A stretch of DNA of 64,000 nt, taken from IMG/VR virus record IMGVR_UViG_3300033804_000036; one strand, 5' to 3'. Both the position numbers and the translations under genes were made by a program. The notes under the pieces were generated by a model that saw nothing but the letters and a program-made list of their open reading frames with translations, made no database searches and was not told the origin of the DNA. Each line of letters begins with the position of its first letter. Within the stretch, counting starts at the first letter, position 1. This document shows positions 2,723 through 44,504 of this stretch, one piece after another. The DNA comes from a virus (taxonomy: Duplodnaviria; Heunggongvirae; Uroviricota; Caudoviricetes).

Positions 2723-3073
2723 TTGATTGAAGTTAAAGAAAATATTACAGAAGAAGAAGTGGCACAGCTTCTAAAGGATATCAAAGGAAGAAACCAGCAG
2801 GTTCGCGTTCGCCTACGAACCCATTACTTCACAGCAAGCGAAGCTGACATAGATACTTACCCTGAACTCACTTGGGATGCCCTCATCATCACCAAAGACG
2901 CAGCGAGAGAAAAGCGCATGCTTATCGCCCTAGTGAACATTCAAGGCCATGGAAAAGTGTACGAAGTCAACAATGAACTTTACGAAGACGTCGTGTCAGA
3001 CAGAAAGCCAGTCTCAGCCATACGAGAAGGAACATTCATACTTGACTTTGACGACAGCCTAGCAGACCACTAA
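2723..3073 (+). CDS. Hypothetical protein, 116 aa
   Basis: ORF ending just before the next motif. Non-ATG (TTG) start, so the start is uncertain. Confidence 0.35.
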   Translation: MIEVKENITEEEVAQLLKDIKGRNQQVRVRLRTHYFTASEADIDTYPELTWDALIITKDAAREKRMLIALVNIQGHGKVYEVNNELYEDVVSDRKPVSAIREGTFILDFDDSLADH

Positions 3074-3098
3074 CCCTCTTTTTCTCTCGGGTGAGTAG
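3070..3098 (+). promoter_or_regulatory. Intergenic motif copy (T-tract + GGGTGA SD) upstream of the ligase gene
   Basis: taaCCCTCTTTTTCTCTCGGGTGAGTAGATG. Confidence 0.7.
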
Positions 3099-4106
3099 AT
3101 GCGAACAGCAGAGCAGTTGCTTAAAGCAGGATTGATGTTGTGTGACACGCCGACAGTCAAGAGTGCACAGAATCTTACAGTCCCTATCAGGAAATACGAG
3201 AGCAAATTTGATGGCACGAGAGGTAAAGGCGCGAATCTTGGAAACAACCAGATAGAGATCATCGGCAGGGACAGAGGCAACGGTCAGGGAACGTTGTATG
3301 GAACAAGAGGAAACCTTCCAGAACTGAACAAGGACATGCAGAGAGCACCTGCACAAACAGTTTTTGACATGGAAATAATCGGACGCAACGAAGTGGGCAT
3401 CGTAACTTTTTCCATCAGCCAGACACGATGTGCAAACCATAAAGCCGTTCCATCAATTGTAGAGCAGAATCCCATCACGGGAATGTGCTTTGACATTCTG
3501 ATGTTGAGAGGAAAAGAAGTTTGGCAGTTGCCTTATCTGGGACGGAAAGCCATCTTGAAAGAGGAACTCAGCACGGGAGGATATGAACACCTAGAATATT
3601 CTGAGCATTACGACGACGGTCGAGAGTTGTGGAAGAATGTTGAGCAGGGATACATGGAAGGCGTGATTGCAAAAGTGGCGGCAAGCCCGTACACTTTCAG
3701 CAGAGGACCTGAATGGTGGAAGCTGAAGTTTCAACAGGACATAATAGTCGACGTAGTCGGCTACACGGCTGGAAAAAACGCTCGGGAAGGACTTTTCGGA
3801 GCGCTGATCGTCACCAAAGACGGAAAACACATCGGAGAAGTCGGCCCAGGACACTTAGAAAGGTCAGAATCCGAGAAGCTGACCGCTTTTTTGAACGCTC
3901 AACCCAAAATTCCATGTCCATTCCTCATTGACAAGCCATATCAAGCCATCCGAACCACGCTTCAAGCAGACGTGACCTTCCACAGACTCTCAAAATACGG
4001 AATAATGCGGTTCCCGGTGCTGAACAGAACCATCTACCCTCAACAAGTGCAGTTGCAAGACTGTCCGAAGCCGACAACATCACCAATTTCCCCTTTTTCT
4101 GGGTGA
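3099..4106 (+). CDS. ATP-dependent DNA ligase-like nucleotidyltransferase, 335 aa
   Basis: Motif I KFDGTRG, motif III FDMEII, motif IV EGVIAK, motif V WWKLK. An OB-like C-terminal region follows. Confidence 0.72.
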   Translation: MRTAEQLLKAGLMLCDTPTVKSAQNLTVPIRKYESKFDGTRGKGANLGNNQIEIIGRDRGNGQGTLYGTRGNLPELNKDMQRAPAQTVFDMEIIGRNEVGIVTFSISQTRCANHKAVPSIVEQNPITGMCFDILMLRGKEVWQLPYLGRKAILKEELSTGGYEHLEYSEHYDDGRELWKNVEQGYMEGVIAKVAASPYTFSRGPEWWKLKFQQDIIVDVVGYTAGKNAREGLFGALIVTKDGKHIGEVGPGHLERSESEKLTAFLNAQPKIPCPFLIDKPYQAIRTTLQADVTFHRLSKYGIMRFPVLNRTIYPQQVQLQDCPKPTTSPISPFSG

Positions 4107-4113
4107 AAGTAGA

Positions 4114-4293
4114 ATGGAGTTAAAATTAACGAAATCCAAAGGCACTACAACGCTAGTCTTCTACGTCAGCGAACAGAGATACGCAGATGCCGAGAAGCTT
4201 GTAGAAAGCGCTGAACTTAAGGCTGTCTTCCAGAAATTCGGCTTTCCAATCGAAGCGGTAGTAAAATCCTCAGTCAGGGCACTACAACATTAG
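4114..4293 (+). CDS. Small hypothetical protein, 59 aa
   Basis: Motif gggtgaaagtagaATG. Below the ORF-track cutoff. In frame to TAG at 4291. Confidence 0.35.
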   Translation: MELKLTKSKGTTTLVFYVSEQRYADAEKLVESAELKAVFQKFGFPIEAVVKSSVRALQH

Positions 4294-4439
4294 AATGCAA
4301 GAGCTTCTTCCTCCATGTTAACCCCTTCTTTTTTCTCTATGGGTGAGCTTGCGAGGCTCGACTGTCATTGGCAGAAACCATGCCTTAAATGTGTCGTTTG
4401 CCCTGCTCAGTCAGCCCGCAGCCACTCGGGTGAATGTAG

Positions 4440-4805
4440 ATGACGTTTCATCTAGCGTTTAAAGTGACGGAAGTTAGAGAAGACGAACATAACCCTGACC
4501 ACGTCCAACTCTACGCAGTAGTCGAAGCCCCTCAAGAACCCAAACAACAGCAACAGCCTAAAGTAATACAAATCGGCATTCCAGAGAAAGACGACGTATC
4601 CAATTTCGGACAGAAACTCCAAACGTCGCTGACAGAAGCAGGGCTAATGCCACAGCAAAGAAAACGTCCCATAGCGGGAATCAGCCTGTACATCTCAGCG
4701 CACCAGTTCATCCAGCTTGGCAGACCTTCAGTCGGAGACCTCATCAGCATAGACGCGGAAACCCTGCCGAGAGGTTTTGACGCGCCCGCCAAGTCCGAGG
4801 AATAA
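4440..4805 (+). CDS. Hypothetical protein, 121 aa
   Basis: gggtgaatgtagATG motif start. Confidence 0.45.
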   Translation: MTFHLAFKVTEVREDEHNPDHVQLYAVVEAPQEPKQQQQPKVIQIGIPEKDDVSNFGQKLQTSLTEAGLMPQQRKRPIAGISLYISAHQFIQLGRPSVGDLISIDAETLPRGFDAPAKSEE

Positions 4806-4807
4806 CC

Positions 4808-5005
4808 ATGACCCAGAAGGTTGACGGCAAACATCCACAGAAGATTGAAGTCCCACCAGACGGCTGTGACGCATGGCCCCATTGCAACACCTGTCCATAC
4901 CCATGCACGGAAACACAGATCGCCGAGAAAGTCGGCAAAATCAGACAACAACTCATAGCAAATGCTGAAAGACGAAAGAACCCAAACTGGAAGAACGACC
5001 TATGA
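4808..5005 (+). CDS. Small Cys-rich protein, 65 aa
   Basis: ATG overlaps the upstream stop. Contains CDAWPHCNTCPYPC. Confidence 0.35.
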   Translation: MTQKVDGKHPQKIEVPPDGCDAWPHCNTCPYPCTETQIAEKVGKIRQQLIANAERRKNPNWKNDL

Positions 5006-5527
5006 AAGTTCACAGATACGTGATTTGCAATGTCAAACAAGAACACTGGAAAGACGTTGAAGAAGCGTTGATAACCCTAGTTCAAAAAGGAATCATAAAA
5101 ACTACAGATGTCCACACAATGGAAGAAGAGGAAAGAAAATGACTTGGTGTCGTAAGCAGCAGAGAGAAGTCAAAGAATCGGATGAGTGCCTGTTCTGCGA
5201 CGAGTACGAGCCGAACCAATGGGACAACTGGTGCAAACTCAAAAGGAAAAGAATCTAACTTCCGCACCCCCTATTTCTACACAGTTAGGGTAGACCTTTT
5301 CAGTGCAGAATACCCACTCGTGTCCATAGCGCCCATCAGGGTGAATAAATGACAGGCCCAGAATTTTTTCAGACACCGATGGGACGCGACTTCTACGACC
5401 ATACGATGCCAGCGATAGCCAAAGCTTTAACGCGGATAGCAACTGCTATGAAGCAAGACACAAACCTAGCACTTGTCAAATAGCAAATTCTAAATAATAC
5501 TTCCACCTTTTTCTAGGGTGAAGCCGA

Positions 5528-5923
5528 ATGTTGAAGTGGCTTAGGAAACTCCTGCGGTTCAGGAATCACGATAGTTTTCAAAAAACAGAAACTGAAAACC
5601 ATGGGGAAACGGAGAAACGTATTAGAGCCGAGGAAAACCCCAAAGCGATGACGAGCGACACTCCTCCCATTCCCCACTCTACAACATGGCCTAGAAACCC
5701 CACCTTCTCCGAAGTGATTGACCTTTCCCCTGAAAACCTAAGCAGACCTACGAGGCAAAGGCGATTGCCGAACCCTGAACTTCCTTCTAAGCAACTGCAC
5801 AGCCGACCTCTTTCTGAAATGAGTCTTGGCAAACGTGGAATGCACCGATCTAAAGCGTCAACGGCACACCAGAACAGACTGTGGAATCCTAAAGCGAAAC
5901 CTGAAGACCCTGAAGACGACTAA
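5528..5923 (+). CDS. Hypothetical basic, proline-rich protein, 131 aa
   Basis: ggtgaagccgaATG motif start. Confidence 0.4.
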   Translation: MLKWLRKLLRFRNHDSFQKTETENHGETEKRIRAEENPKAMTSDTPPIPHSTTWPRNPTFSEVIDLSPENLSRPTRQRRLPNPELPSKQLHSRPLSEMSLGKRGMHRSKASTAHQNRLWNPKAKPEDPEDD

Positions 5924-5962
5924 TCCCTTTTTTCTTTTTTTTCCGCTTTGGGTGAAGCCGAA

Positions 5963-6688
5963 ATGGTTTTACTGCAGATAGAAGACCTCAGCGTGGAAGT
6001 CAGCAAGAAAAAGCTGAACAGCAACATACTGTTTCCAGAGCCGAAGCCGTATCGGCCGTTGAAGCAGCTTGACGAAAAAGCAAAGGTCATCGACCCAGCC
6101 GACGTAGTTGAATTGCACCGCCAACGTACATACACTCTTCGGGCCGACGGTTCAGTGATTGGAACAACGGCGCAGGTGTCGTACAAGGATGAATGGGTTG
6201 ACAACGAAGGCAAAGTAGCCGACATAATCCTGTGGCTTCTCATGAAAGACGGCAAGCTTGTTCCATCGAAGCAGTACAGCGCCTCCAGGGTCATCACAGG
6301 AATTCTTCAGATCTCGAGGAAGATTGTGGAGAACTGGGTTCCTGAAAGCGTCTACGAAATCTACATCAGCCGCAGAAAATACAACGAAGCTGAATACGGA
6401 CGTATGCAGGCGCTTCTGTTCAAGAAGGCTGAAGAATGGTACGCCAACGACAGGGCTATGCTTGGACAATTCGTCTTCAGAGAGGGCGGCAGACCGTACG
6501 CCATGCTATTGTTCCCATACATCAGGAAGGAAGGCAACACCTGCAAGTTCTGTTTCGTCATGGCGTGCAGCAGAACAAAACAGGAATTCGAGAACCTGAT
6601 GGAGTTCTCAACTGCACTGAGACAGCCGACTGTGCTTCTGGCTGAGGAACCGAACAACGAGGAACTATTGAGAGCAATTGCTCAGTAA
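5963..6688 (+). CDS. Hypothetical protein, ~241 aa
   Basis: gggtgaagccgaaATG. The track ORF begins 15 nt earlier at a TTG inside the motif. Confidence 0.5.
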   Translation: MVLLQIEDLSVEVSKKKLNSNILFPEPKPYRPLKQLDEKAKVIDPADVVELHRQRTYTLRADGSVIGTTAQVSYKDEWVDNEGKVADIILWLLMKDGKLVPSKQYSASRVITGILQISRKIVENWVPESVYEIYISRRKYNEAEYGRMQALLFKKAEEWYANDRAMLGQFVFREGGRPYAMLLFPYIRKEGNTCKFCFVMACSRTKQEFENLMEFSTALRQPTVLLAEEPNNEELLRAIAQ

Positions 6689-6955: not shown

Positions 6956-7012
6956 GCAATAGCTCAGTAGATTCCAAACAATTTCCCTTCTTTTTTCCTG
7001 ATAAAATTATGG

Positions 7013-7231
7013 GTGAAAGAGTTGGTCAAAGTTGGAAAGATTAGACTGTCCGAGGAAGAGGTTCGATTACTAAACATGACTCCTACCAAAACTTGTTGGT
7101 TATGCACCGACATCGCTTCGCGTGTACGTGAAGATGCACAGGGCTATTTTCTGCTTGAAACTGCACTAGACGACGACGGAAAAGCTGAGCATCTGAGACA
7201 GGTAATCGGAAGAGAACCCACAGTAACCTGA
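7013..7231 (+). CDS. Hypothetical protein, 72 aa
   Basis: The start is the GTG inside the GGGTGAA motif. It could instead be the ATG at 7077. Confidence 0.3.
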   Translation: MKELVKVGKIRLSEEEVRLLNMTPTKTCWLCTDIASRVREDAQGYFLLETALDDDGKAEHLRQVIGREPTVT

Positions 7232-7491: not shown

Positions 7492-7516
7492 TCCTCTTTT
7501 TTTGTTGGGTGATAAA

Positions 7517-7750
7517 ATGGACTTTCGAGAGTTAGATGAGGACGGACTTACCATCTGTCCACAATGTAGAAAACACTATAGGCCAGTGTTAGGCGAACGG
7601 CCGAAAGGAGACAACCGACCGGTACAACAGATTTTTCCAAACGCTAAGAAATTCGAATTGGAACAGCTTATTACAGGTATATGCAGCGATGCTTGCTGGA
7701 ACAAGTATCTAGGAATAAGAGCAAGTGCACACACACTCAAACGGGAATAA
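7517..7750 (+). CDS. Zinc-ribbon protein
   Basis: gggtgataaaATG. Contains CPQCRKHY. Confidence 0.45.
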   Translation: MDFRELDEDGLTICPQCRKHYRPVLGERPKGDNRPVQQIFPNAKKFELEQLITGICSDACWNKYLGIRASAHTLKRE

Positions 7751-7777
7751 TTCCTCTCTTTTTTGTCGGGTGAAAGT

Positions 7778-7981
7778 ATGCCGTGGCATGAAACAGAAGA
7801 GATGCACAACGTCAAGACGTTGCTGATGACTATAAACCTGCAAGCTGTCAAAGGAGAAATTCCTATCGACGACTACAACATGTTCCTTGAAAGCCTCAAC
7901 GAAGACATCTCGCCAGAATATCGGATAGTGAAAAAACGCCGTCCAGTCTCATCGAGAACGGTTGTCACCCGGTATCCGTAA
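7778..7981 (+). CDS. Hypothetical protein
   Basis: gtcgggtgaaagtATG motif start. Confidence 0.4.
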   Translation: MPWHETEEMHNVKTLLMTINLQAVKGEIPIDDYNMFLESLNEDISPEYRIVKKRRPVSSRTVVTRYP

Positions 7982-8280: not shown

Positions 8281-8322
8281 ATTCTTAAATCCTACTTTTT
8301 TCTATTTATGCCGGGTGACAAG

Positions 8323-8544
8323 ATGAGTTATTGGAGATTGCTATGTCTTCTGCCGTTGGCGTACATCATATGGTGGTTCTACGCTCTTTTGACCTGGATT
8401 ATCCCTGCCGCTAACAATCCAATCGGAGGAATCGCTGGAACAACTTGGCTGCAAGTAGTATCAGTCATCCTCTTCTTCTCACTGGGCCTCCTACTGTTGA
8501 TAGTTGCCTTCATAGCTTTCGTCGGAGTACTCATAGCAGATTGA
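8323..8544 (+). CDS. Small membrane protein
   Basis: ccgggtgacaagATG. Two hydrophobic helices. Confidence 0.45.
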   Translation: MSYWRLLCLLPLAYIIWWFYALLTWIIPAANNPIGGIAGTTWLQVVSVILFFSLGLLLLIVAFIAFVGVLIAD

Positions 8545-8656
8545 GTTTCAATCCCTTTTTTTTCTTTGTCGGGTGAAGCGGAGACCGTCCAGTAGGCAAT
8601 TAACGCAACTGCGTAAAACCCGAAAGACTTCATCCGCTCACCATCGGGTGAGAAAA

Positions 8657-8785
8657 ATGAGAAGGAAAAACCCATGCAAGTCCTGTAAAATCGTCCTCTG
8701 CGTTCCCGAAGAAAACGAGAGTTGCGTCCAACGCAGACTTTTCGTAAAGCCAAAACCAACAAAGAAAAAGCATATTCGATACTAG
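8657..8785 (+). CDS. Small zinc-ribbon protein, 42 aa
   Basis: cgggtgagaaaaATG. CKSCKIV ... CVPEENESC. Confidence 0.3.
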   Translation: MRRKNPCKSCKIVLCVPEENESCVQRRLFVKPKPTKKKHIRY

Positions 8786-8809
8786 CCTTTCTTTTTTTCT
8801 GGGTGAATA

Positions 8810-10483
8810 ATGATGAGTTGGATAGCTGAAGAAACCATCAAACGAGTTTGTCAGAACACATGCGTATTCCTCTTGCACACAAGGGACAAGGCTAGAACAG
8901 ACCAGGCTCGGAAATGGATTGTGAAGCTGATGAATGCGAAGGACGGCGAACAATTGACGTTTACCCGCGGACTGGAATTTGACATTCAAAGACAGGAACT
9001 TCTTGACATCGGAAACAAACTGTCAGTAGTAGAACCGTCAACTCTTCAGACCATAGACCAGCAACTGCTGGACGGCGGCACGGCGGCTCAACCTAAAAGA
9101 ACGGCGGTGTTGATACACAATGTTTTCCTGCAAAGCCACGCAGACAGCCTGAGCGATTATCTGGCGGCATGGGCGCAAGACGGCAGAATCTTCAACAACG
9201 GCGGAACAATCACCGTGGTCACAGCCAACGTTTCACTTTTCCCCGAGCCGCTACGGGAAATGTGCCACACCATCAGCCTGTACCCGCCGAGCACTGAAGA
9301 AGAAAGATTAGCGGTTGCACAGCAGGTCGTCAAGAACTTGAAGGACAACTTGAACCCTGTTGAACTGAAGAAGCTGGACTTGAGATTTCCCGCCAACATG
9401 ATTGAACAGTCAAGAGGACTCAGCCCGTCAGAAATGCAGACAGCGGTAATGGAGTCAACCCGCACACTCGGCAAAATCGATCCGGCTAAATTCACGGAAA
9501 TCAAAGCAGCAAAATTCCGCGCTCAAGGTAGAGAATACATGATTCCAACAACAGGCTACGAAGCACTTGCCGTTCCAGAATACGTTAAAGCACTCATACA
9601 AAACGCTGTAGCCATCCCACTGAAAGATCCTGAAAAAGCCAAACGGTACGGGCTGACGCTGCCTAAAGGCATCATCGTTGTAGGGCCGCCGGGAACAGGC
9701 AAGACCGCACTGGCAGAAACATTGGCTTACGAGTTGAAGTGGCCCATGATCAAAGTTGTCGCAGCAGACCTCTACAAATCCCATGTTGGAGAATCTGAAG
9801 CCGCATTGAGAGACTTTTTCCGTGACGTAGAAGCAAACGTGCCATGCGCAGTTTTCATAGATGAAATCGACGCGATACTTCCAGTCAGAGGAACCGTGAT
9901 GGCAACCGACTCAGGAGTCAACAGAAGACTCACAAACGGCATGCTTGAGGAACTAGGCGATTCGCAGAGACGCAGCTTCATAATCGCCGCAACCAACCGT
10001 ATAGGAGACGTGGACCCTGCAGCCGTCAGGCCAGGCAGGTTCGACTACATCGTGCCGATTCTGTATCCAGACCAGAAAGGCCGAATGCAGATAATAAAGA
10101 TACATTGCACCGTACGCAATCACCTGCCGATAGATGACAGCGTCAAAACTGGATACGAAGAACTTGCCAAACTCTCCGCGTGGATGAGCGGCGCCGACAT
10201 AGCTAAATGGTGTCTGGACACAGCCCGGTACGCGATGGAACAGAACCAGTATCCAGTAACCATCGACCACTTCAAAGAAGTCCGCAAATGGACAGACATC
10301 AACGTGACGGAAAGACAGAGAGAACTTGAAGAACTCACATCAGACATGCAGAGACTGAAAAGCGGTGTGAACAAAAGAATCTGGGAGCAGGCCATCGAAG
10401 AATTCACTCAAAGCGGCAGCAAAGACGAAGCAGACAGACTGAAAGCATTCACAGAAGGATTCACTTCAAAAGCAGCAGTCTAA
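8810..10483 (+). CDS. AAA+ ATPase (CDC48/FtsH-type AAA module) with a ~280-aa N-terminal domain
   Basis: Walker A GPPGTGKT, Walker B FIDEIDAI, second region of homology with an Arg finger (VRPGRFDY). Confidence 0.8.
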   Translation: MMSWIAEETIKRVCQNTCVFLLHTRDKARTDQARKWIVKLMNAKDGEQLTFTRGLEFDIQRQELLDIGNKLSVVEPSTLQTIDQQLLDGGTAAQPKRTAVLIHNVFLQSHADSLSDYLAAWAQDGRIFNNGGTITVVTANVSLFPEPLREMCHTISLYPPSTEEERLAVAQQVVKNLKDNLNPVELKKLDLRFPANMIEQSRGLSPSEMQTAVMESTRTLGKIDPAKFTEIKAAKFRAQGREYMIPTTGYEALAVPEYVKALIQNAVAIPLKDPEKAKRYGLTLPKGIIVVGPPGTGKTALAETLAYELKWPMIKVVAADLYKSHVGESEAALRDFFRDVEANVPCAVFIDEIDAILPVRGTVMATDSGVNRRLTNGMLEELGDSQRRSFIIAATNRIGDVDPAAVRPGRFDYIVPILYPDQKGRMQIIKIHCTVRNHLPIDDSVKTGYEELAKLSAWMSGADIAKWCLDTARYAMEQNQYPVTIDHFKEVRKWTDINVTERQRELEELTSDMQRLKSGVNKRIWEQAIEEFTQSGSKDEADRLKAFTEGFTSKAAV

Positions 10484-10517
10484 CTTCCCCTTCTTTTTTA
10501 TGGTGGGTGAATAACAC

Positions 10518-10844
10518 ATGTCAGAACACAGATGCTTCACCATGGGAGAGTTAGACTTTTTCGTTCTCGCATTTAAATGCTCGAAATGTGCTTATGACTT
10601 CTCGACAGATGAACAAACACTTTATGAACTCTACCTCGACATGGTTGCACAGTCAAAGATGCAAGGTGAACCGCAACTAGACAAATATGTTGACCATTAC
10701 AAGCAGGTGCTATTCTGCCCTCTTTGCCATGAACAATTGGTCGCCAGAATAAAATTTACGAAGGTTCACAAGTTTCTCAAAATAGAAGGAGTCACTTATC
10801 CAGTAGAACAAGATGCAACATGGATAGCAATGCACAAACCCTAA
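10518..10844 (+). CDS. Zinc-finger protein, 108 aa
   Basis: ggtgggtgaataacacATG. CSKCAY ... CPLCHEQ. Confidence 0.45.
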   Translation: MSEHRCFTMGELDFFVLAFKCSKCAYDFSTDEQTLYELYLDMVAQSKMQGEPQLDKYVDHYKQVLFCPLCHEQLVARIKFTKVHKFLKIEGVTYPVEQDATWIAMHKP

Positions 10845-11022
10845 TTCCCTTGAAAGAGGAAGCGCATTTGCGAGAACTGAAGAACAGTGTAGACGGAACG
10901 GAACGGCTGATCTTCGATTTAAAAATGGAAATGCAGCATATCATCGAACTAGCGCTCGCGCGCGCTAAATAACCCCTTTTTTTATGGGTGAGAAAACGAG
11001 TAAATTTCGTTCGATAAAGACA

Positions 11023-11685: not shown

Positions 11686-11713
11686 ACTCTCCTCTTTTTC
11701 TGGGTGAAAATGA

Positions 11714-12883
11714 ATGGAAAAGCAACTGCAACTTTTCGACTCTAAACTGAGAAACATTGAGCCGCCAGCAGAACAATCTGAGCAACCGCTACCAAAACAG
11801 GTAATAGTCTTGGAAGACTGTGAACACAGCGAGAAGCGTGTAATCTTGCCGTCAGATAAGAAGCCTGTCGTGTTGCAGGGCATGATAATAGCTCCGCATG
11901 TGCCTAGCGAAAGCAAGTTTGAAGTGCCTGTTGAAGGTTTGTCAGACGAAAAGTTCAACGGATTGAAGAATGAACTGGAAGACCTGTACCCGCCGATTGA
12001 CGAGAACTGGAAACACAAGTATGCTCGAGGCAGAGCTTGGAGAGCGGTTGGAACAAGAGTCGGACGGAATATTGTGGAAGGAGGCGTTCAGCCGGACACG
12101 ATTCAAGACAGAGTGCGAGTCCTGTACGTGCGAATGTTTCCAAGCAGCATCACAAGCTGGCCGTCGTCTATCAGAACCAAAATCTACACGGACATCATTC
12201 CAACAACCTGCTTCGCCCTTGAAAAAGAGAAGAAGGGCAACCAGCACAAAATGACTTTCATCCTGCCCTACAGCAACATTCCACGTTGGATGGAGAAAAT
12301 TGACGAGTTGAACAGGACGGAAGTAGCTAAGCTGAACGCGGCCATCGTGGAGTTTCAGCAGAGCCGAGACTACCAGACCATTGTGGATGTACTGCAAAAA
12401 TGGAACGTGGCAAACGTCTTGGAACACGCAAGCTTTGGCATCGACAACATAACATGGACTTGGCAACCGCTAAGCCTAGACTTTGAAACGGTCAAGCAGC
12501 ATGTTGAAGAAGCATGGAAAAAAGCGTTCGGAGAAGTCGACGCAACCAAAAAGAAGATGATACAAGACTTCATCGAAAACGACATGGCAGCACGCAACAA
12601 AGAGTTTGAACGGTGCATCGAAAACCTACAGGCCAGAATCAAAACCATCACGCTGAGAATCAGCACAAGACGCAAACCTGAAAGACTGAAAGAAGACATA
12701 GAAGCAATCCGGGGCATGGCTTTGAGCATGGGCGCAGAAGAACTTGCAGAAACAGTCTTACAGCCACTACAGGAAGTAATCGATCATCCTGAAAAAGCCG
12801 TGGAACTGTTTGGCACAAAAGAAGTTGACAAGGAAATAGAGGGAAGAATGCAAGCCTTCGTAAAAACCTTCAAAGGCTTTTAA
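11714..12883 (+). CDS. Hypothetical protein, 389 aa
   Basis: Long ORF after a motif copy. No recognisable domain. Confidence 0.5.
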   Translation: MEKQLQLFDSKLRNIEPPAEQSEQPLPKQVIVLEDCEHSEKRVILPSDKKPVVLQGMIIAPHVPSESKFEVPVEGLSDEKFNGLKNELEDLYPPIDENWKHKYARGRAWRAVGTRVGRNIVEGGVQPDTIQDRVRVLYVRMFPSSITSWPSSIRTKIYTDIIPTTCFALEKEKKGNQHKMTFILPYSNIPRWMEKIDELNRTEVAKLNAAIVEFQQSRDYQTIVDVLQKWNVANVLEHASFGIDNITWTWQPLSLDFETVKQHVEEAWKKAFGEVDATKKKMIQDFIENDMAARNKEFERCIENLQARIKTITLRISTRRKPERLKEDIEAIRGMALSMGAEELAETVLQPLQEVIDHPEKAVELFGTKEVDKEIEGRMQAFVKTFKGF

Positions 12884-12941
12884 ACCCCTTCCTTTTTTCT
12901 ATGGGTGAACGTATATATACTCCACTGTTTGACTCATATCT

Positions 12942-14535: not shown

Positions 14536-14561
14536 TCTCTCCTTTTTTATTGGGTGATAAA

Positions 14562-15759: not shown

Positions 15760-15781
15760 CCTTTTTCTAGGGTGAATTTGG

Positions 15782-34928: not shown

Positions 34929-34948
34929 TTTTTCTGTTGGGTGAAAAA

Positions 34949-35671
34949 ATGTCTGAATATCCAAAGATTGAAACATTGTTTGACCGCGACCCGAAAACGG
35001 TCAAGGTTGACGAAAGCAAAATTCGACTGCCAGAGTTTCTAATGGTAAGCAAATGGTACGTCACAGAGAAAATTGACGGAACAAACGTACGGACTGATTT
35101 CAAAACCAAATGGGAACCAACTGGAAAGTTTCTAAGTCCAAACCAGCCTGTTGTTCAAAATGCTGGTCGCGTGGTAGAAGTTGCGGGCAGAACTGAAAAT
35201 GCGCAGATGCCGCCGTTTCTCTATCGGTTTCTGTCCGACACTTTCACTCTGGAAAAATTGCAGCAAACATTTCCAGATCTTGAACCTCATATCACCGTAA
35301 CAATTTACGGCGAAGGTTACGGACCAAAAATTCAAAGCGGAGGTAACTATCGCAAAGACATTGCGTGTAGACTTTTTGACGTGAAAGTTGGTTCGTGGTG
35401 GCTTGAACCTGACAACATCGACAGTGTAGCTCGGAAGCTGGGCATTCAAACTGTTCCGTTGATTTCGGAAGCCATGACCATTGAAGACGCAGTCGCATTC
35501 GTCAAGAATAAACCGCAATCCAAAGTTTCAATGCAGGAATATGAAGGCATATGCAAAGACGGAAAATATCCATCAATAGAAGGCATAGTAGCAAGGACTA
35601 CACCGCTATTGTTGCGACGCAACGGCGAAAGACTAATGTGGAAACTGAAATGTAAAGACTTCAAACTCTAA
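34949..35671 (+). CDS. ATP-dependent RNA-ligase-like nucleotidyltransferase (Rnl family)
   Basis: Motif I KIDGTNV, motif IV-like EGIVAR, motif V WKLK. Confidence 0.62.
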   Translation: MSEYPKIETLFDRDPKTVKVDESKIRLPEFLMVSKWYVTEKIDGTNVRTDFKTKWEPTGKFLSPNQPVVQNAGRVVEVAGRTENAQMPPFLYRFLSDTFTLEKLQQTFPDLEPHITVTIYGEGYGPKIQSGGNYRKDIACRLFDVKVGSWWLEPDNIDSVARKLGIQTVPLISEAMTIEDAVAFVKNKPQSKVSMQEYEGICKDGKYPSIEGIVARTTPLLLRRNGERLMWKLKCKDFKL

Positions 35672-35752
35672 CTTTTTCTATGGGTGATAAGATGAGTGTT
35701 GTAAATCTTGGGGAAACAGTGGGAGTGGCTGAGACAGTTCTACGTGGACATG

Positions 35753-36335: not shown

Positions 36336-36795
36336 AAGGTCAGGAACAGGCATCTGCTGATCCAAAACTCGCTGTTTCTGCCAAGCCCTGTAAAGAGTAA
36401 GCCGCATGTTAGCGTCCTTCAACATTTCAAACAGCCGCGTCCTATCCTTCTTCAATCCTTCACCATATTCCTTCGACAACCCGAGACGCGTCTCAAAAAG
36501 TTTCACTGTGTCCAACAGACACGTTTCAGTTACCGTTTTCGGCTTGTCTAATATCCATCACCAACAAACAAAGGGAAAAGAGAGGTAAGTTTGAGTATGC
36601 GTAAAGTGGGAGTGCGTTCAGTTCAACATTTTGGCAATTGAATTTGTACGCACGTCCCGAGGACGCATCGACATCTTATAGGTGGAGGTTCCTTATATAA
36701 TTTTCCCTTTTTTCTCAATTAATGAGAATCCAGGCAAACTGTTATATATGTGAACAACAGATGTGAAGGGTGATGCGTCAAAAACGAGGGCGTAC

Positions 36796-36872: not shown

Positions 36873-36921
36873 AAAAACACGCTCTCGTTACTCACGCATA
36901 ACATTAACAAGGGTGAAAAAT

Positions 36922-37113
36922 ATGGCGAGATTGAAAATTGTTCAGGGCGCTGACAAGACAGACGTGGAAGTTCCCGAGGACATGTTGCACGCAAGCGATG
37001 AACAGGTTATAAGCTACATTCACGAGACTCTCCACAGAGAACTGGCTGAAAACACTGTTATCGAAAGAACTTCCGAAGCTATAATCTGCCATCCGTCAGC
37101 AGTCTACGGATAG
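36922..37113 (+). CDS. Hypothetical protein, 63 aa
   Basis: gggtgaaaaatATG. Confidence 0.4.
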   Translation: MARLKIVQGADKTDVEVPEDMLHASDEQVISYIHETLHRELAENTVIERTSEAIICHPSAVYG

Positions 37114-37629: not shown

Positions 37630-37704
37630 TTAGGTACAATATCCCGAGGCGCAAAGCTGCCAAATTTAAGCGGCAACTTCCTCTTTTTTCTGTTGGGTGA
37701 AATT

Positions 37705-38034
37705 ATGAACAGAATTCAAAGAAAAAGAACAAAAGGATGGAAGATGTCGCCCAACACAGTATATGTTGGGCGGCCTACTAAATGGGGAAATCCATGGACG
37801 ATAAAGGAATATGGACGCGAAGATGCTTTGAGACTATATGAATCTTGGTTACGTGAGGAAATCTTACTTGACCCTGACTTTCTTGAGCCGCTCAAAGGCA
37901 AAGACCTTGCCTGCTGGTGCCCGCTTGACAAACCATGCCACGCCGATGTTATCCTGAAAGTCTTAGGCGAAAAGCCTAACATTGGCTTTCCTGACTACGG
38001 TTCTCCAATCGAATCTCCAAATCTAGGAGGATAA
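37705..38034 (+). CDS. DUF4326-like protein
   Basis: gggtgaaattATG. GRPTKWGNPW ... CWCPLDKPCHADVI. Confidence 0.45.
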   Translation: MNRIQRKRTKGWKMSPNTVYVGRPTKWGNPWTIKEYGREDALRLYESWLREEILLDPDFLEPLKGKDLACWCPLDKPCHADVILKVLGEKPNIGFPDYGSPIESPNLGG

Positions 38035-38062
38035 CCCCTTTTTTTCTAGGGTGAGGTGAAAA

Positions 38063-38248
38063 ATGAGGCTAGGATTCAACATAGGAGCTTTCCTTGTGGG
38101 TTTCGGCACACCAGCGTTCGTTTACGGTGTTGTCGAATGGTGCTCACAGAAGCCACGTGTATTCTACCTAGTTGAAATGGTTGTGGGACTTTCTGTAACT
38201 GCAGCAGGATTTCTCTTGATATATGCTTCGGAGAAAAGAAAGAAATGA
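38063..38248 (+). CDS. Small membrane protein
   Basis: Two TM helices. Confidence 0.45.
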   Translation: MRLGFNIGAFLVGFGTPAFVYGVVEWCSQKPRVFYLVEMVVGLSVTAAGFLLIYASEKRKK

Positions 38249-39042: not shown

Positions 39043-39062
39043 TTTTTTCTAAGGTGAACAAT

Positions 39063-39284
39063 ATGGAAAACCCGTTTGTCTGCGAAAAATTCTCGGATTT
39101 TTGGCGGCTGATTGCAATAGAATTCAGCCCTATTTGGGTAAACGTTCCTTTTGATGAAGATCCTGACCACGAAACCTGTCCCTATTGCGGTTTGGTTGGG
39201 TCTTGCATGTGTGACATGATTGCCGAAGAAGAACTTGACCCTGAAGGGTTAGGACTAGAAGAAGACTATGGATACGTCTATTGA
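39063..39284 (+). CDS. Cys-rich small protein
   Basis: aaggtgaacaatATG. CPYCGLVGSCMCD. Confidence 0.4.
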   Translation: MENPFVCEKFSDFWRLIAIEFSPIWVNVPFDEDPDHETCPYCGLVGSCMCDMIAEEELDPEGLGLEEDYGYVY

Positions 39285-39443
39285 ACATGAATTATGTGGA
39301 TACTCAAACTGTTTTCGGCCATTCTACAAGATGTGCGGTTTCATGCCATGCTGCAAACTTCATTATGAACATCCTAAGAAATGGGGTGAAGACGGGCAAA
39401 CATTTACAGGTTCAGTCTTTGTAAAGGCGTAAGGGTGAATAAC

Positions 39444-39698
39444 ATGGATCAGAAAGAGTTGCAGAGAAAACTGGCAAACAGCACTGACATAGAAGGCATG
39501 GTCACCTGCGGAGAATGTATCTGGTCATGCTGGCACAGATGGACATGGTACTGCGTCAACCCGCTGATCATGCATGAAATCGAATACGCAACGATAGAAA
39601 AGAACCGGCTTTGCGGCCATTTTAAAAAGGCAGAGTTTGAAGTACAGTACCGATTTGACGTGAATCTCGAACAACAGGACGAGGATGATTTCAGATGA
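39444..39698 (+). CDS. Cys-rich hypothetical protein
   Basis: agggtgaataacATG. Confidence 0.4.
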   Translation: MDQKELQRKLANSTDIEGMVTCGECIWSCWHRWTWYCVNPLIMHEIEYATIEKNRLCGHFKKAEFEVQYRFDVNLEQQDEDDFR

Positions 39699-39924
39699 GT
39701 GAACCACCATGCGTGAAATGTAAACAAACTATGCCTGAAGAATGGCTGAAACAAAACTGCCCATGCGCGGAAAGAAAGGCTTGGGAAGCTAATCAGGAGA
39801 AAGAAAATGAAGGAAGAAAGAGAAGAAAACATAGACCCTGAAGAAGATGATCCCACAACTGATCTGTTGGCGGAGGAAGAAAATGCCGAACTGCAAAGGC
39901 GCGAATAGTTTCAGGGGTGACAAC

Positions 39925-41301
39925 ATGAACAACCTTTTGCTTCAAACAGATTCGTACAAGCAGTCGCATTGGAAACAGTATCCACCAGGAACAACCAACA
40001 TCTACAGCTACTTCGAAAGCAGAGGAGGAGAATATCCTGAAGTGGTTTTCTTCGGCCTACAATATATTCTGAAACGATACTTGGAAGGACAAGTGGTTAC
40101 AGAAGCCAAAATCGAAGAAGCCGAAAAAATCTGCGCCCTCCATTTCGGCAGTGAAGACCTGTTCAACAAAGACGGCTGGAACTATATTCTCGATGTCCAT
40201 GGTGGCAAACTTCCGCTTTCAATCAAAGCGGTCCCTGAAGGAACAGTTGTGCCAACCCATAACGTGCTGGTAACCGTGGAAAACACAGATCCTAACGTGC
40301 CTTTCCTAACCAATTTTGTAGAGACTCTTCTAGTGCAAACATGGTATCCAAGCACAGTAGCCACATTGTCACGACACATCAAACAACTGATAAACAGGTA
40401 TCTGGAAATCACTGGTGACCCGTCCTTAATCGACTTCAAACTACACGACTTCGGCTTCAGAGGAGTATCTTCAACAGAAAGTGCTGGTATAGGCGGCTGC
40501 GCTCATCTAGTCAACTTCAAAGGCACAGACACAATGGCGGCGCTGATGATCGCCAGAGAATACTACCATTGTGAAATGGCAGGCTTCAGCATTCCAGCAG
40601 CAGAACACAGCACCATGACCGCATGGGGAAAAGACCATGAAGTAGACGCTTTCCGCAACATGCTACGCAGCTACCCGAAAGGCACAGTCGCCGTCGTCTC
40701 CGACCAGTACGACATTTACAAAGCATGCGCAGACCTCTGGGGAACCCTGCTTAAACAAGAAGTTCTGGAAAGAGACGGAGTCCTAGTTATCCGGCCAGAC
40801 AGCGGCAACCCGCCTGAAGTTGTCTTGAAAGTAATCAGCATCCTCGGCGAACATTTCGGCTACTACAAAAACGACAAAGGCTACAAAGTCCTGAACAACC
40901 ACGTTCGAGTGATACAGGGAGACGGCGTTGACGAGCAGATGATAGAAAAAGTTTTGAAAACCTTGGAACTGAGCAGATGGAGCACGGACAACATTTCATT
41001 CGGCATGGGCGGCGGCCTCCTGCAGAAACTTCACAGAGACACGCAGAAATTCGCGTTCAAATGTTCAAACGCCGTCGTCAACGGAGAACAACGCCTAGTC
41101 TTCAAAACTCCTATAACAGACCCGGGTAAAAACAGCAAGGCTGGACGACTTAAACTGGTCAAAAGCAACGGCACATACATAACCGTTCCCGAATGGGCTG
41201 ACAGGTACGGGCCAGACCGGCTTGTGCAAGTTTTCCTCAACGGCTACGTCACTACAAAATATTCTATGGACACAATCAGGGAACGGGCCAAAATAAGGTG
41301 A
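39925..41301 (+). CDS. nadV: Nicotinamide phosphoribosyltransferase (NAMPT/NadV-type)
   Basis: aggggtgacaacATG. N-terminal LLQTDSYKQSHW, GG ... LSIKAVPEGTVV, ~460 aa. Confidence 0.8.
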   Translation: MNNLLLQTDSYKQSHWKQYPPGTTNIYSYFESRGGEYPEVVFFGLQYILKRYLEGQVVTEAKIEEAEKICALHFGSEDLFNKDGWNYILDVHGGKLPLSIKAVPEGTVVPTHNVLVTVENTDPNVPFLTNFVETLLVQTWYPSTVATLSRHIKQLINRYLEITGDPSLIDFKLHDFGFRGVSSTESAGIGGCAHLVNFKGTDTMAALMIAREYYHCEMAGFSIPAAEHSTMTAWGKDHEVDAFRNMLRSYPKGTVAVVSDQYDIYKACADLWGTLLKQEVLERDGVLVIRPDSGNPPEVVLKVISILGEHFGYYKNDKGYKVLNNHVRVIQGDGVDEQMIEKVLKTLELSRWSTDNISFGMGGGLLQKLHRDTQKFAFKCSNAVVNGEQRLVFKTPITDPGKNSKAGRLKLVKSNGTYITVPEWADRYGPDRLVQVFLNGYVTTKYSMDTIRERAKIR

Positions 41302-41767: not shown

Positions 41768-41796
41768 TTTCCCTCTTTTTCTGTTGGGTGAAAAAC

Positions 41797-42027
41797 ATGG
41801 TAACAAAAAAATTCTGCGATGTTGAAGGCTGCGATGAAGAAGCGTTTGAGTCTGTCGACGTCTGCTACGGCTGGCTAGAGAGCCAACAAAGGGAAGGAGA
41901 ACCAGAAAAGAAATTCGAACGTTTCGAGCAACCAGACGTGGGAAAACGAGACCTATGTTTCAAACATTACAAACTCTGGTGTGCAGCAACCTACACGGTA
42001 ATTCAAGGTGAAAAGAAAAATGAGTAA
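41797..42027 (+). CDS. Hypothetical Cys-containing protein
   Basis: gttgggtgaaaaacATG. Confidence 0.45.
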   Translation: MVTKKFCDVEGCDEEAFESVDVCYGWLESQQREGEPEKKFERFEQPDVGKRDLCFKHYKLWCAATYTVIQGEKKNE

Positions 42028-42739: not shown

Positions 42740-43093
42740 AGCAGCATGCATAGAATGCGGAAAAGAAATCATACAGGTAGCAGGGATCTGGCGACATACA
42801 GACCTAAACACGGACGGCCACGCAGCAAAACCCATAAACACCAAACCACTCCGAAAACATTCCGCCGAAACATAATAGTTACACTATAATGGGTGTAACA
42901 ACTACCCGCTTTTTTGGGTGATTCAAACGACTGAAAAATCTTTGCGTGATTTCAAAACTGTCGACGAACTCACTGCGGAAATCAAACGCATGAACGAGAC
43001 AAACCCTGCCTGCCATCTTGACGGAACATGGCGAAGACGAATGAAAAAACTTAATCAGAAACGTGAACGTTTAGAAAACGAGAAGGTGAAATA

Positions 43094-43510
43094 GTGGAAG
43101 AATTAATCATTGAAGTCCGCGCTGCAGACGTTCTAGAAAAAGTGAAACAGCACAGAAAACGCTACCAGAAATCGTACGCAGCATTGTTGAGAGCATTCGA
43201 CAGGAGAGCCATAGAATACCAGAAGAAATACGAGGAATTCCGCCGAACCACCACCGCCAACGAGCAAGGAAAAGAGCCTGAAGCACCGCCGAAACCAGAA
43301 AACCGCACTAAAGACTATGATTTCTACATACAAATGTTAACGTCACACACTGCAACAACCATCAAAATTTCAGAAGCCCTGTTCAAACGGCTTTTCTACG
43401 ACAAATGGGACTGGACATACCAACACCATCACGCACTAATGTTCTACGCGAAAGCCGGAGGCCCAGGAAGCGCAGACCTAGCAACAATGGCAAGCGCATA
43501 CGAACGATGA
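43094..43510 (+). CDS. Hypothetical protein, 138 aa
   Basis: aaggtgaaataGTG start. Confidence 0.4.
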   Translation: MEELIIEVRAADVLEKVKQHRKRYQKSYAALLRAFDRRAIEYQKKYEEFRRTTTANEQGKEPEAPPKPENRTKDYDFYIQMLTSHTATTIKISEALFKRLFYDKWDWTYQHHHALMFYAKAGGPGSADLATMASAYER

Positions 43511-43560
43511 TTTCGTGTGTACGATTCCTTTTTATACTTCCCTTTTTTTGGGTGAAGAAT

Positions 43561-43866
43561 ATGGATGAAAACAAACATGAACATGACAGATTCCTTTACT
43601 CAAAAGATGGCAAACTCCATTTCGGCTGTATAAATCCGTTTTGCGGTCATGGCGACCCTGCTCTGCCTAATCATTGGGAAATACCAATGGAAACAAAGTC
43701 AATAAGCATAATTTCTGCAAAACACGACAAAGAACATAGACTTTTAAGCTTTGAAATCAGATTCAAGGTAGATGTTGGAAGATTCAAGAAAGATGATGTT
43801 ATCCAGCTACCGTGTACCGACAATTTAGAATGTTGTAAAATAACATTTGGACAACTTTTCACCTAA
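43561..43866 (+). CDS. Hypothetical protein, 101 aa
   Basis: tgggtgaagaatATG. Confidence 0.45.
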   Translation: MDENKHEHDRFLYSKDGKLHFGCINPFCGHGDPALPNHWEIPMETKSISIISAKHDKEHRLLSFEIRFKVDVGRFKKDDVIQLPCTDNLECCKITFGQLFT

Positions 43867-43898
43867 CAAACTCTTCCTTTTTTCTGCTGGGTGAACGT

Positions 43899-44069
43899 AT
43901 GGTCTCAGAAGGAAAAGCAAGACTGTTCAAACGCAAAGACGGCAAATACCTCATATACATACCAGTTGACTTCGCAGAAGACAGCATGTTCCCCTTCAAA
44001 GGCTCCGACTCTGTAGCGTTAAAAGCCGTCTTCAACAAAGACGAAATAATCCTCAGAAAATGGAAGTAG
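43899..44069 (+). CDS. AbrB/SpoVT-like small DNA-binding protein (tentative)
   Basis: ctgggtgaacgtATG. ARLFKRKDGKYLIYIPVDFAED. Confidence 0.35.
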   Translation: MVSEGKARLFKRKDGKYLIYIPVDFAEDSMFPFKGSDSVALKAVFNKDEIILRKWK

Positions 44070-44111
44070 AAACATAACAGCCAAACATCAACCTCCCCTT
44101 TTTTCTTTCGG

Positions 44112-44438
44112 GTGAAAAACATGAACATTCGTAGGAAGTGGAGACTAAGACTTCGCAGAGGCATGAGGATAGCCATGATGAAATATGGAGCAACATTAAT
44201 TGAATGCCCAAACTGCCACCTACAGGTTCCTCATTACCGCGACGGAGTAACAACATGCCTTGCCTGCGGCGCAACAATTGAAGGTGACTTAAACGCAAGC
44301 GCTGAATACACAGCTAACAACATAACATCAACTCCAGAAGGAGCAACAGCAAAAATCAACCTCCCATCAATCAGACCAAACGAAACTCTCAAAGTAAACG
44401 TAACGTTCCGACTGAAAGAGAAACCAGACGGAAAATAA
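44112..44438 (+). CDS. Zinc-ribbon protein
   Basis: cgggtgaaaaacATG. CPNCHL ... CLACG. Confidence 0.45.
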   Translation: MKNMNIRRKWRLRLRRGMRIAMMKYGATLIECPNCHLQVPHYRDGVTTCLACGATIEGDLNASAEYTANNITSTPEGATAKINLPSIRPNETLKVNVTFRLKEKPDGK

Positions 44439-44504
44439 CCCTTCTTTTTTCTTTCGGGTGAAAAACTTTTAAGTAGAAAACTCCCTAATCATCTTCGGAG
44501 AGCC

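Follow-up and report, generated by a model that had tools for sequence, protein, structure and literature searches.

In Sulfolobus operons, internal cistrons carry Shine–Dalgarno (SD) sites of the GGTGA type and first cistrons are leaderless. The terminator consensus of Sulfolobus and SSV1 is reportedly TTTTTYT, attributed to Reiter et al. in 1988. More generally, archaeal terminators are hairpin-less oligo-T tracts on the sense strand soon after the stop codon, and aCPSF1 (FttA) binds such U-tracts and cleaves there (PMC8716108). In Methanococcus maripaludis, 38% of operons contain internal poly-U terminators, typically one or a few each and with no fixed link to an SD, which terminate partially (transcription termination efficiency 30–80%), require aCPSF1 and reduce the expression of genes behind them (PMC10450193). 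Here we describe a 64,000-nt stretch of DNA from a Caudoviricetes record, IMGVR_UViG_3300033804_000036 (hereafter the window, at its full length), in which nearly every gene boundary of a 41-kb block carries a cassette that fuses an oligo-T run to the motif GGGTGA. Both parts of this cassette are known: SDs of the GGUGA type and the oligo-T terminators of archaea. We did not find described, in the literature on GGGTGA in archaea and on viruses of Bathyarchaeia, a fused cassette of this kind that marks one viral expression class and is missing from the host lineage.

The cassette resembles the Methanococcus internal terminators in placing intergenic poly-U inside operons, partial termination and aCPSF1 dependence being measurements made in Methanococcus. 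It differs from them in number and regularity, with 45 copies in 41 kb, at nearly every junction and at a fixed short distance from GGGTGA, in an element that is probably viral and known from its sequence alone. Compared with archaeal U-tract terminators, which it matches in lacking a hairpin and following the stop codon closely, and whose consensus most copies share by going on as YT, it is set in about 20 nt of sequence that is rich in C and strictly without G, its density is extreme, and such signals are rare in the probable host lineage. The GGUGA core, the short spacing to the start codon and the use on internal cistrons are those of GGTGA-type SDs, and the homing endonuclease genes of the element are leaderless behind TATA boxes; here, however, the SD has an extra invariant 5′ G, is unenriched before starts in the sampled Bathyarchaeia chromosomes and is limited to one module.

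GGGTGA occurs 66 times on the plus strand of the window and 7 times on the minus strand. Between 3.0 and 44.5 kb there are 61 plus-strand copies (1.47 per kb), against 7.5 ± 2.9 expected and a maximum of 16 in first-order Markov simulations of the block. In 45 of these (1.04 per kb) a run of at least five T lies within 30 nt upstream, which is how we define a full unit; simulated sequences contained about 0.08 such composites. The unit is confined to this one-directional block, in which all genes are on the plus strand. Its parts follow one another in this order: the stop codon TAA; a stretch of pyrimidines without G that closes with TTTTT(T)YT; GGGTGA; a spacer of 4–5 nt rich in A; and ATG. 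In a position matrix anchored on the invariant GGGTGA of the 45 copies, G is nearly missing from −20 to −4, T is present in 30–41 copies at each position from −10 to −4, A is enriched from +6 to +11, and no information remains upstream of −21, the usual place of the preceding gene's stop codon. The T-runs are 5–8 nt long and in most units begin 0–12 nt past the stop codon, with TAA used in 35 of 41 cases. T-run and GGGTGA are 0–8 nt apart in 43 of 45 units (mode 3–5, full range 0–14), and the distance from GGGTGA to the start codon, ATG in 38 of 46, is 4–5 nt in 31 of 46 (range 1–7).

A first-pass annotation of this DNA had proposed a single unit ahead of at least 45 genes and had recommended a motif model and a measurement of spacing to the start codons. 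The recurrence of the unit and its tight geometry stand. The number of genes does not stand for full units, of which 34 of 45 directly precede an open reading frame (ORF; a start codon within 13 nt that opens at least 35 codons) and about 8–11 are 'orphans' with no such start; it is reached at 46 genes when the 12 copies of GGGTGA that precede ORFs without a T-run, at tight junctions and in some cases abutting the stop codon, are counted as well. The annotation was also right that an in-frame ATG or GTG inside (T)ATGGGTGA misleads ORF callers, as at ORFs 14809, 10984, 20520 and 8573.

The two halves of the unit are separable, and each was assessed on its own. GGGTGA is best read as a strong SD site, as had been suggested: it stands mostly 4–5 nt before starts, it is strand-specific (66 versus 7), and 12 copies directly precede ORFs with no T-run at all. 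GGUGA pairs with UCACC(U), a sequence conserved close to the 3′ terminus of 16S rRNA in archaea, and the same pairing is presumed here.

The T-runs show several features of an archaeal oligo-T terminator. They are T5–8 shortly past the stop codon, and they are also present at the ends of transcription units and before promoters. Runs of at least five T reach 8.9 per kb in intergenic sequence and 0.6 per kb in coding sequence, a 15-fold difference. No hairpin lies upstream of the T-run (mean z of −0.32 against shuffled sequences, with z below −2 in 4 of 45), which, in an element whose proliferating cell nuclear antigen (PCNA) and short-arm tRNA-Tyr are archaeal, rules out a bacterial intrinsic terminator. 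In several places the T-run stands without GGGTGA: upstream of TATA boxes (Table 1) and at the operon ends of flank genes on the minus strand (52843, 53259, 54231 and 59191), and thus where a terminator is expected. GGGTGA turns up wherever a protein-coding start comes next and, for the most part, nowhere else; the tRNA gene behind the T-run at 36708 and the TATA box at 36741 needs no SD, and the T-run there lacks one. Most junction T-runs continue as T5NT (35 of 42, with CT in 26), and not one copy of this heptamer occurs in about 35 kb of sense coding sequence, against an expectation of 6.4 ± 2.9; just 1 of 500 codon shuffles gave as low a count.

The unit contains no canonical promoter. The position matrix carries no conserved signal from −25 to −35 of GGGTGA, and a TATA scan found about 8–10 candidates in the block, against 45 T-runs; where a TATA box and GGGTGA occur together in the block, the distance between them varies from about 13 to 33 nt. 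Canonical promoters do exist in the same element. Genes of the flank, and of a relative whose conserved 483-residue protein is 50% identical (L126), have a TTTATAA-type TATA box with its 5′ end 29–32 nt before the G of GGAGA(A/G)CC (distances worked out by hand from the sequences), followed 4–8 nt on by a start codon that is often GTG or TTG. From this layout, flank transcripts are predicted to begin at GGAGA and to have leaders of some 12 nt. Since the T-run is only about 20 nt from ATG, the same geometry applied to it would place the start about 10 nt inside the ORF. A canonical promoter, whether within the unit or ahead of it, is therefore ruled out, in line with the first-pass view that the unit is not of TATA type. 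The element, as far as its sequence tells, thus has two expression classes, a block with the unit and an adjacent module with TATA plus GGAGA(A/G)CC; together with the virus-like gene content and the restriction of the unit to one block, this fits the viral or plasmid programme that had been proposed.

A host-wide signal was the case that the first-pass annotation had named as fatal to its own proposal. We compared the block with 1.34 Mb from 80 Bathyarchaeia genomes (2.68 Mb on both strands, about 17 kb per genome), the lineage that the element's PCNA points to. The unit has 8 matches there, or 0.003 per kb, and all are random, in-gene occurrences with neither a pyrimidine tract nor a start codon. 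GGGTGA occurs at 0.14 per kb and is unenriched among the hexamers before ATG-initiated ORFs. T-runs within 20 nt past the stop codon follow 7.7% of long host ORFs (2.7% at 40–60 nt), compared with 37% in the block. The idea of a host-wide habit is refuted, for a probable host assigned through the similarity of the element's PCNA. Stop codons of the long ORFs in this sample are nearly even (TAA 177, TAG 168, TGA 137), beside the TAA bias at unit junctions.

In the reading that we think probable, the unit is a hairpin-less archaeal oligo-T terminator or pause site set beside a strong SD, within long polycistronic transcription units of a virus-like element. GGGTGA with its A-rich spacer would load ribosomes on each internal cistron, and the pyrimidine tract would make RNA polymerase pause or terminate just past TAA, probably through the U-tract-binding aCPSF1/FttA. 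Because so few TATA candidates face so many T-runs, the junction T-runs must be leaky or conditionally suppressed. Most would be weak or conditional attenuators, like the internal operon terminators of Methanococcus, that grade or gate expression along the block, and the same signal would end transcription units ahead of promoters. That the tract serves as a terminator or pause site, as the first-pass annotation had supposed, is what we infer from the missing hairpin, the stand-alone T-runs and the lack of T5NT in coding sequence, and its leakiness and the part played by aCPSF1 are inferred with it.

Several observations weigh against this reading. Thirteen T-run junctions follow one another from 14552 to 20518 with no TATA box between them; at efficiencies of 30–80% hardly any polymerase would get as far as the distal genes, so the signals have to be much weaker or suppressed, which is an added assumption. 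The orphan units keep GGGTGA despite having no start codon, and together with the narrow gap between T-run and GGGTGA they hint at a single fused signal and not two independent ones, and leave space for an unconventional promoter or a processing site as well, each of the three being unlikely. Stop-proximal T-runs are rare in the host lineage, as noted above. Within genes, runs of at least five T are undepleted relative to codon shuffles (18–21 against about 21 expected; 18 against 20.6), and such depletion was dropped as evidence. A5NA is also depleted two-fold in coding sequence; a general avoidance of homopolymers may account for some of the T5NT deficit, which as evidence for a signal is only suggestive.

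A bolder reading takes the junction as a translation-gated transcription switch or a true stop–start module; alternatively, a virus-specific factor would recognize the entire cassette, ending transcription and beginning it anew at every gene. We regard this as unlikely. In the switch, the U-tract would lie within reach both of the ribosome ending at TAA and of the one initiating at the SD; ribosomes would hide it from aCPSF1/FttA, and only translated transcripts would extend through the 45 terminators. Such shielding is a possibility drawn from the geometry of the junctions alone. If true, it would be a viral, genome-wide control of transcription–translation coupling in archaea. Two viral systems offer analogies, and analogies only. 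The poxvirus early signal TTTTTNT is read as RNA by the capping enzyme and NPH-I, with termination 20–50 nt downstream and a promoter for each early gene. It is, like the T5NT of the block, a class-specific viral signal kept out of the coding sequence that it governs, but its machinery and promoter layout are unseen here: no poxvirus-type polymerase, capping enzyme or NPH-I was recognized in the block, the larger flank proteins or the domain hits of the right extension, in a genome that is incomplete and whose smaller flank ORFs were unscanned. In the Mononegavirales, which have RNA genomes, the viral RNA-dependent polymerase polyadenylates by stuttering and then re-initiates. These viruses share with the element a stereotyped U-tract at each boundary of a one-directional array and offer a natural expression gradient; the element, unlike them, is DNA, and no polymerase gene was found among the window proteins tested or the precomputed domain hits of the 9-kb extension.

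Three further explanations compete with the terminator–SD reading. If aCPSF1 or another endonuclease cut in the U-tract while the polymerase carried on, the result would be monocistronic mRNAs with 5′ ends just upstream of the SD, possibly, by analogy with T4 RegB and its GGAG sites, at a class-specific control point. The cleavage activity of aCPSF1 on U-tracts (PMC8716108) and the tie of the unit to one gene class, the other having GGAGA(A/G)CC, both suit such processing, and the problem of reading through 45 T-runs would vanish. This explanation, however, largely overlaps the terminator reading and differs from it only in whether polymerase is released; no unit-specific nuclease candidate was found among the block proteins, and the lone T-runs before promoters are more simply terminators. 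We consider processing unlikely. A translational role for the pyrimidine tract, as a U-rich enhancer or standby site or as an unstructured spacer for re-initiation about 30 nt downstream of TAA, would account for a tract that always lies between a stop codon (0–12 nt upstream) and an SD (0–8 nt downstream) and for the prevalence of TAA, and bacteria are known to have U-rich enhancers ahead of SDs. We hold it to be quite unlikely. The predicted cost of opening the SD is 6.87 kcal/mol with the native tract and 6.14 kcal/mol with coding 20-mers substituted, the native value being lower in only 15 of 45 units, which does not support the tract as an SD-opening spacer. Twelve genes use GGGTGA without the tract, the T-run also occurs where no translation start comes next (at TATA boxes, the tRNA gene and flank operon ends), and orphan units exist. 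Archaea are not known to have ribosomal protein S1.

Lastly, the unit could be an unconventional, element-specific promoter or initiator at which a viral factor or polymerase starts at GGG, giving short leaders (5′-GGGUGAAAAAUG) and one start per gene. The long series of junctions without a TATA box, 13 in a row, the GGGTGA kept by orphans, the narrow spacing from T-run to GGG and the absence of the unit from the host lineage all agree with this, as does the flank, where GGAGA(A/G)CC sits at the predicted transcription start, so that the element appears habitually to begin its transcripts with a purine-rich SD. Yet neither the proteins of the block, nor those larger flank proteins that were tested, nor the precomputed Pfam hits of the right extension include a homologue of RNA polymerase, TBP or TFB, the smaller flank ORFs being unscanned, and we know of no archaeal virus that encodes its own RNA polymerase. 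Canonical TATA promoters serve flank genes, homing endonucleases and a tRNA in the same element; lone T-runs upstream of TATA boxes or at convergent gene ends occupy a terminator's place; GGGTGA lacks a T-run at 12 junctions; and the distance from TATA box to GGGTGA in the block is variable. On this balance a unit-borne promoter is very unlikely.

Table 1 Units, GGGTGA-only sites, stand-alone T-runs and promoters. Positions are those of the window unless a relative is named; orphan units lack a directly following start codon.
Feature	Coordinates	Strand	T-run	Motif	Start codon	Remark
Full unit	3079..3101	+	T5	GGGTGA	ATG	DNA ligase
Full unit	4094..4116	+	T5	GGGTGA	ATG	
Full unit, probably orphan	4329..4351	+	T6	GGGTGA		about 80 nt non-coding, then SD-only site 4428
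Full unit	5508..5530	+	T5	GGGTGA	ATG	
Full unit	5928..5965	+	T6 + T8	GGGTGA	ATG	double T-run
Full unit	6991..7024	+	T6	GGGTGA	TTG	14-nt gap
Full unit	7497..7519	+	T7	GGGTGA	ATG	
Full unit	7759..7780	+	T6	GGGTGA	ATG	
Full unit	8296..8325	+	T6	GGGTGA	ATG	11-nt gap
Orphan unit	8556..8576	+	T8	GGGTGA		then structured non-coding stretch
Full unit	8792..8812	+	T7	GGGTGA	ATG	AAA ATPase
Full unit	10494..10520	+	T6	GGGTGA	ATG	
Unit, no start within 13 nt	10977..10991	+	T7	(AT)GGGTGA		overlapping ATG is the ORF-caller start (methyltransferase)
Full unit	11695..11716	+	T5	GGGTGA	ATG	
Orphan unit	12893..12908	+	T6	GGGTGA		then at once TATATATA promoter of LAGLIDADG gene
Full unit	14543..14564	+	T6	GGGTGA	ATG	
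Full unit	14802..14823	+	T7	GGGTGA	ATG	HtrA-like protease
Full unit	15762..15784	+	T5	GGGTGA	ATG	
Full unit	16338..16362	+	T6	GGGTGA	ATG	
Full unit	17038..17063	+	T5	GGGTGA	ATG	
Full unit	17254..17276	+	T6	GGGTGA	ATG	
Full unit	17635..17663	+	T8	GGGTGA	ATG	
Full unit	18293..18316	+	T5	GGGTGA	ATG	
Full unit	18809..18828	+	T6	GGGTGA	ATG	
Full unit	19228..19251	+	T5	GGGTGA	GTG	
Full unit	20008..20031	+	T7	GGGTGA	TTG	
Unit	20369..20384	+	T5	GGGTGA	ATG	short ORF (<35 codons)
Orphan unit	20506..20523	+	T8	GGGTGA		then TATA boxes and leaderless ATG 20565; layout kept in L123
Full unit	24871..24893	+	T7	GGGTGA	ATG	PCNA
Full unit	25655..25678	+	T7	GGGTGA	ATG	
Orphan unit	26206..26219	+	T6	GGGTGA		
Full unit	29364..29386	+	T7	GGGTGA	ATG	conserved 483-residue protein
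Unit	31104..31116	+	T6	GGGTGA	ATG	mini-ORF; real gene 31151 has GGTGA
Orphan unit	34258..34273	+	T7	GGGTGA		copy 1 of 30-nt tandem duplication
Full unit	34288..34310	+	T7	GGGTGA	GTG	copy 2 of 30-nt tandem duplication
Full unit	34929..34951	+	T5	GGGTGA	ATG	RNA ligase; L123 orthologue has AGGTGA only
Unit	35673..35687	+	T5	GGGTGA		putative start assignment; kept in L123 (16914)
Full unit	37684..37707	+	T6	GGGTGA	ATG	DUF4326; kept in L123 (18118)
Full unit	38039..38065	+	T7	GGGTGAGGTGA	ATG	
Variant unit	39043..39065	+	T6	AGGTGA	ATG	
Full unit	41776..41799	+	T5	GGGTGA	ATG	
Orphan unit	42910..42921	+	T6	GGGTGA		
Full unit	43543..43563	+	T7	GGGTGA	ATG	TTTTTATAC box just upstream
Full unit	43878..43901	+	T6	GGGTGA	ATG	
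Full unit	44099..44123	+	T6	GGGTGA	ATG	
Orphan unit (last)	44445..44461	+	T6	GGGTGA		ends block ahead of opposite-strand tRNA array
GGGTGA-only SD	4428..4442	+		GGGTGA	ATG	
GGGTGA-only SD	5339..5351	+		GGGTGA	ATG	within end of upstream ORF
GGGTGA-only SD	8646..8659	+		GGGTGA	ATG	paired with upstream UCACC in predicted fold
GGGTGA-only SD	21213..21225	+		GGGTGA	ATG	overlaps upstream stop
GGGTGA-only SD	22369..22381	+		GGGTGA	ATG	downstream of TATA 22347
GGGTGA-only SD	27848..27860	+		GGGTGA	GTG	downstream of CTTATAAAA
GGGTGA-only SD	28174..28187	+		GGGTGA	ATG	MarR-like winged helix-turn-helix gene
GGGTGA-only SD	28721..28730	+		GGGTGA	TTG	
GGGTGA-only SD	31408..31421	+		GGGTGA	ATG	
GGGTGA-only SD	36911..36924	+		GGGTGA	ATG	SD-only also in L123 (17860)
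GGGTGA-only SD	39433..39446	+		GGGTGA	ATG	straight after TAA
GGGTGA-only SD	39915..39927	+		GGGTGA	ATG	alternative NAMPT start
Stand-alone T-run	2712..2717	+	T6			pyrimidine run after TAA
Stand-alone T-run	22315..22321	+	T7			C-rich; past SPFH gene, 25 nt upstream of TATA 22347 (terminator-then-promoter layout)
Stand-alone T-run	28529..28541	+	T5, T6			double; immediately upstream of TATA 28548
Stand-alone T-run	36708..36713	+	T6			C-rich; upstream of TATA 36741 of tRNA 36796
Canonical TATA box	12911..12921	+		GTATATATA	ATG	31 nt ahead of leaderless ATG 12942
TATA-like boxes	20527..20558	+		CTTTTAAAC, CTTATAAC, TGTTATAA	ATG	ahead of ATG 20565
Canonical TATA box	22347..22364	+		CTTTATAATAATTATAA		
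Canonical TATA box	28548..28563	+		GTTTATAAGTCTTATAG		
Canonical TATA box	36741..36750	+		GTTATATATG		upstream of tRNA 36796
TATA + (T/C)GGAGA(A/G)CC sites	50308, 52551, also 44505	+				window
TATA + (T/C)GGAGA(A/G)CC sites	55008, 59191, 60769, also 62596	−				window
TATA + (T/C)GGAGA(A/G)CC sites	7917, 17067					L126 (50% relative)

The distribution of the unit was followed in relatives, by which we mean metagenomic contigs that share the conserved 483-residue protein, graded by the identity of that protein. The closest, L123 (84%), has 24 plus-strand and no minus-strand copies of GGGTGA and 16 T-run units in 21 kb; L209 (70%) has 9 and 0, with 4 units in 8.9 kb. No unit is present in L210 (64%; GGGTGA 3 and 0), L124 (54%; 2 and 2) or L211 (47%; 1 and 1), and L126 (50%; 0 and 10) has 4, on other genes. 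Unit presence thus follows the identity of the 483-residue protein: the carriers are L123 and L209 only, plus the four copies in L126. Between the window and L123 the unit is kept at 35682 (16914 in L123) and 37695 (18118), and GGGTGA alone at 36911 (17860); the RNA ligase junction has the unit in the window and AGGTGA only in L123, and in the PCNA region the unit of L123 lies one junction further upstream than in the window. At 34258–34310 (+) the whole unit (GGGTGAACAATCTCCTAACCTTTTTTTC..GGGTGA) is duplicated in tandem over 30 nt, where the orthologous site of L123 is single-copy, so units are able to multiply by local duplication. No other carriers were found by DNA motif in 2.9 million viral contigs: a 33-bit pattern gave 45 matches there, none with more than one composite unit, and a 14-base pattern gave single chance matches only, among the matches listed. 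The distribution in relatives, the differences between junctions of the window and L123, the tandem duplication and the lack of other carriers mark the unit as a young, labile trait of one sub-lineage. Genes of L124, which has no unit, are often preceded by G-runs (AGGGGG, TAGGGGGT; for example at 3776, 5373 and 2235), and SD flavour thus varies among sub-lineages of one virus family.

The gene of the 483-residue protein (29384–30835, +) has distant homologues annotated as VWA-domain proteins. Across relatives it is accompanied by genes for RlaP, ThiF and RNA ligase (neighbours at 31813–39042), company that suggests an RNA or tRNA repair module. A search of viral contigs with this protein alone found nothing, and a search of genome contigs with the alignment of its family found no member, hence no binned or integrated copy that would name the host directly. 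The sole match in a phage record, LR756511.1 (a 595-kb 'uncultured phage', 28% identity), was set aside, as the unit is missing there.

The element is a probable large archaeal virus or extrachromosomal element, to judge by its genes. Products of the block include an ATP-dependent DNA ligase, an AAA ATPase, an HtrA-like protease, an SPFH protein, NAMPT, RlaP, RNA ligase, PCNA, ThiF, a ribbon-helix-helix protein, a MarR-like protein, a methyltransferase, a LAGLIDADG homing endonuclease, DUF4326 and DUF5131; Pfam 'Serglycin' matches on block proteins are artefacts of the glycine-serine linkers used in the analysis. No capsid or terminase gene was recognized among the element's products, and its status as a virus is therefore probable, short of proven. 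An archaeal host is indicated by the type of PCNA, a tRNA-Tyr(GTA) with a short variable arm and probable tRNA introns. The PCNA (24891–25637, +) shares 62–67% identity with the cellular PCNAs of Candidatus Bathyarchaeia, its 80 best genome matches are all Bathyarchaeia or mis-binned contigs, and it is a probable host-derived gene; as the sole clue to the host it points to Bathyarchaeia as the probable one. The tRNA-Tyr belongs to a dense array of tRNA genes, at least 17 in number, at 44769–49587 on the minus strand. Five Rfam matches in this array span 93–161 nt against a 71-position model, ARAGORN having missed most of the long ones, and these five tRNAs probably contain introns, which is unusual for virus-borne tRNAs.

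Other features lie within or beside the block. A lone tRNA gene (36796–36872, +) is called by ARAGORN as tRNA-Tyr with the unusual anticodon ATA. Two free-standing LAGLIDADG homing endonuclease genes, at 12942–13682 (a Pfam match) and 37150–37629 (with a GFFDGEG motif), both on the plus strand, each have their own TATA box and a leaderless ATG and are inserted at a gene junction; the orphan unit at 12893–12908 owes its state to the first of these insertions. In relatives (L126), LAGLIDADG or intein insertions occur in other genes. Two non-coding stretches of 70–80 nt, at 8577–8645 and 4347–4427 (+), each separate an orphan unit from a second GGGTGA and ATG. Neither has an Rfam match at gathering thresholds; the former folds better than shuffled sequences (z of −2.1), UCACC on its upstream side pairing with the SD downstream, and may, on this predicted fold, be a leader or regulatory RNA. 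A pathway for nonulosonic sugars of the sialic or pseudaminic type occupies 51668–63715 and positions 1–9700 of the right extension (L208), with genes for NeuB, UDP-GlcNAc 2-epimerase, CMP-sugar synthetase, DegT aminotransferase, WbqC, an MptE-like protein and a GT2 glycosyltransferase, adjoined by Flg_new_2 adhesin-like proteins.

For gene annotation in this virus family, the unit marks true start codons where ORF callers choose an ATG or GTG inside (AT)GGGTGA, and it tells apart two expression classes. Bathyarchaeia have no cultured representative and no transcription data, and in archaea at large transcription termination and its coupling to translation, with aCPSF1/FttA, U-tracts and internal operon terminators, are still being worked out. 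For these questions the block is natural test material, since it repeats a nearly identical oligo-T signal about 45 times and keeps it each time at a fixed short distance from both a stop codon and a strong SD. If the T-runs do terminate transcription, the virus must tune or suppress them, and the cassette would become a test object for read-through, polarity and the coupling of ribosome and RNA polymerase.

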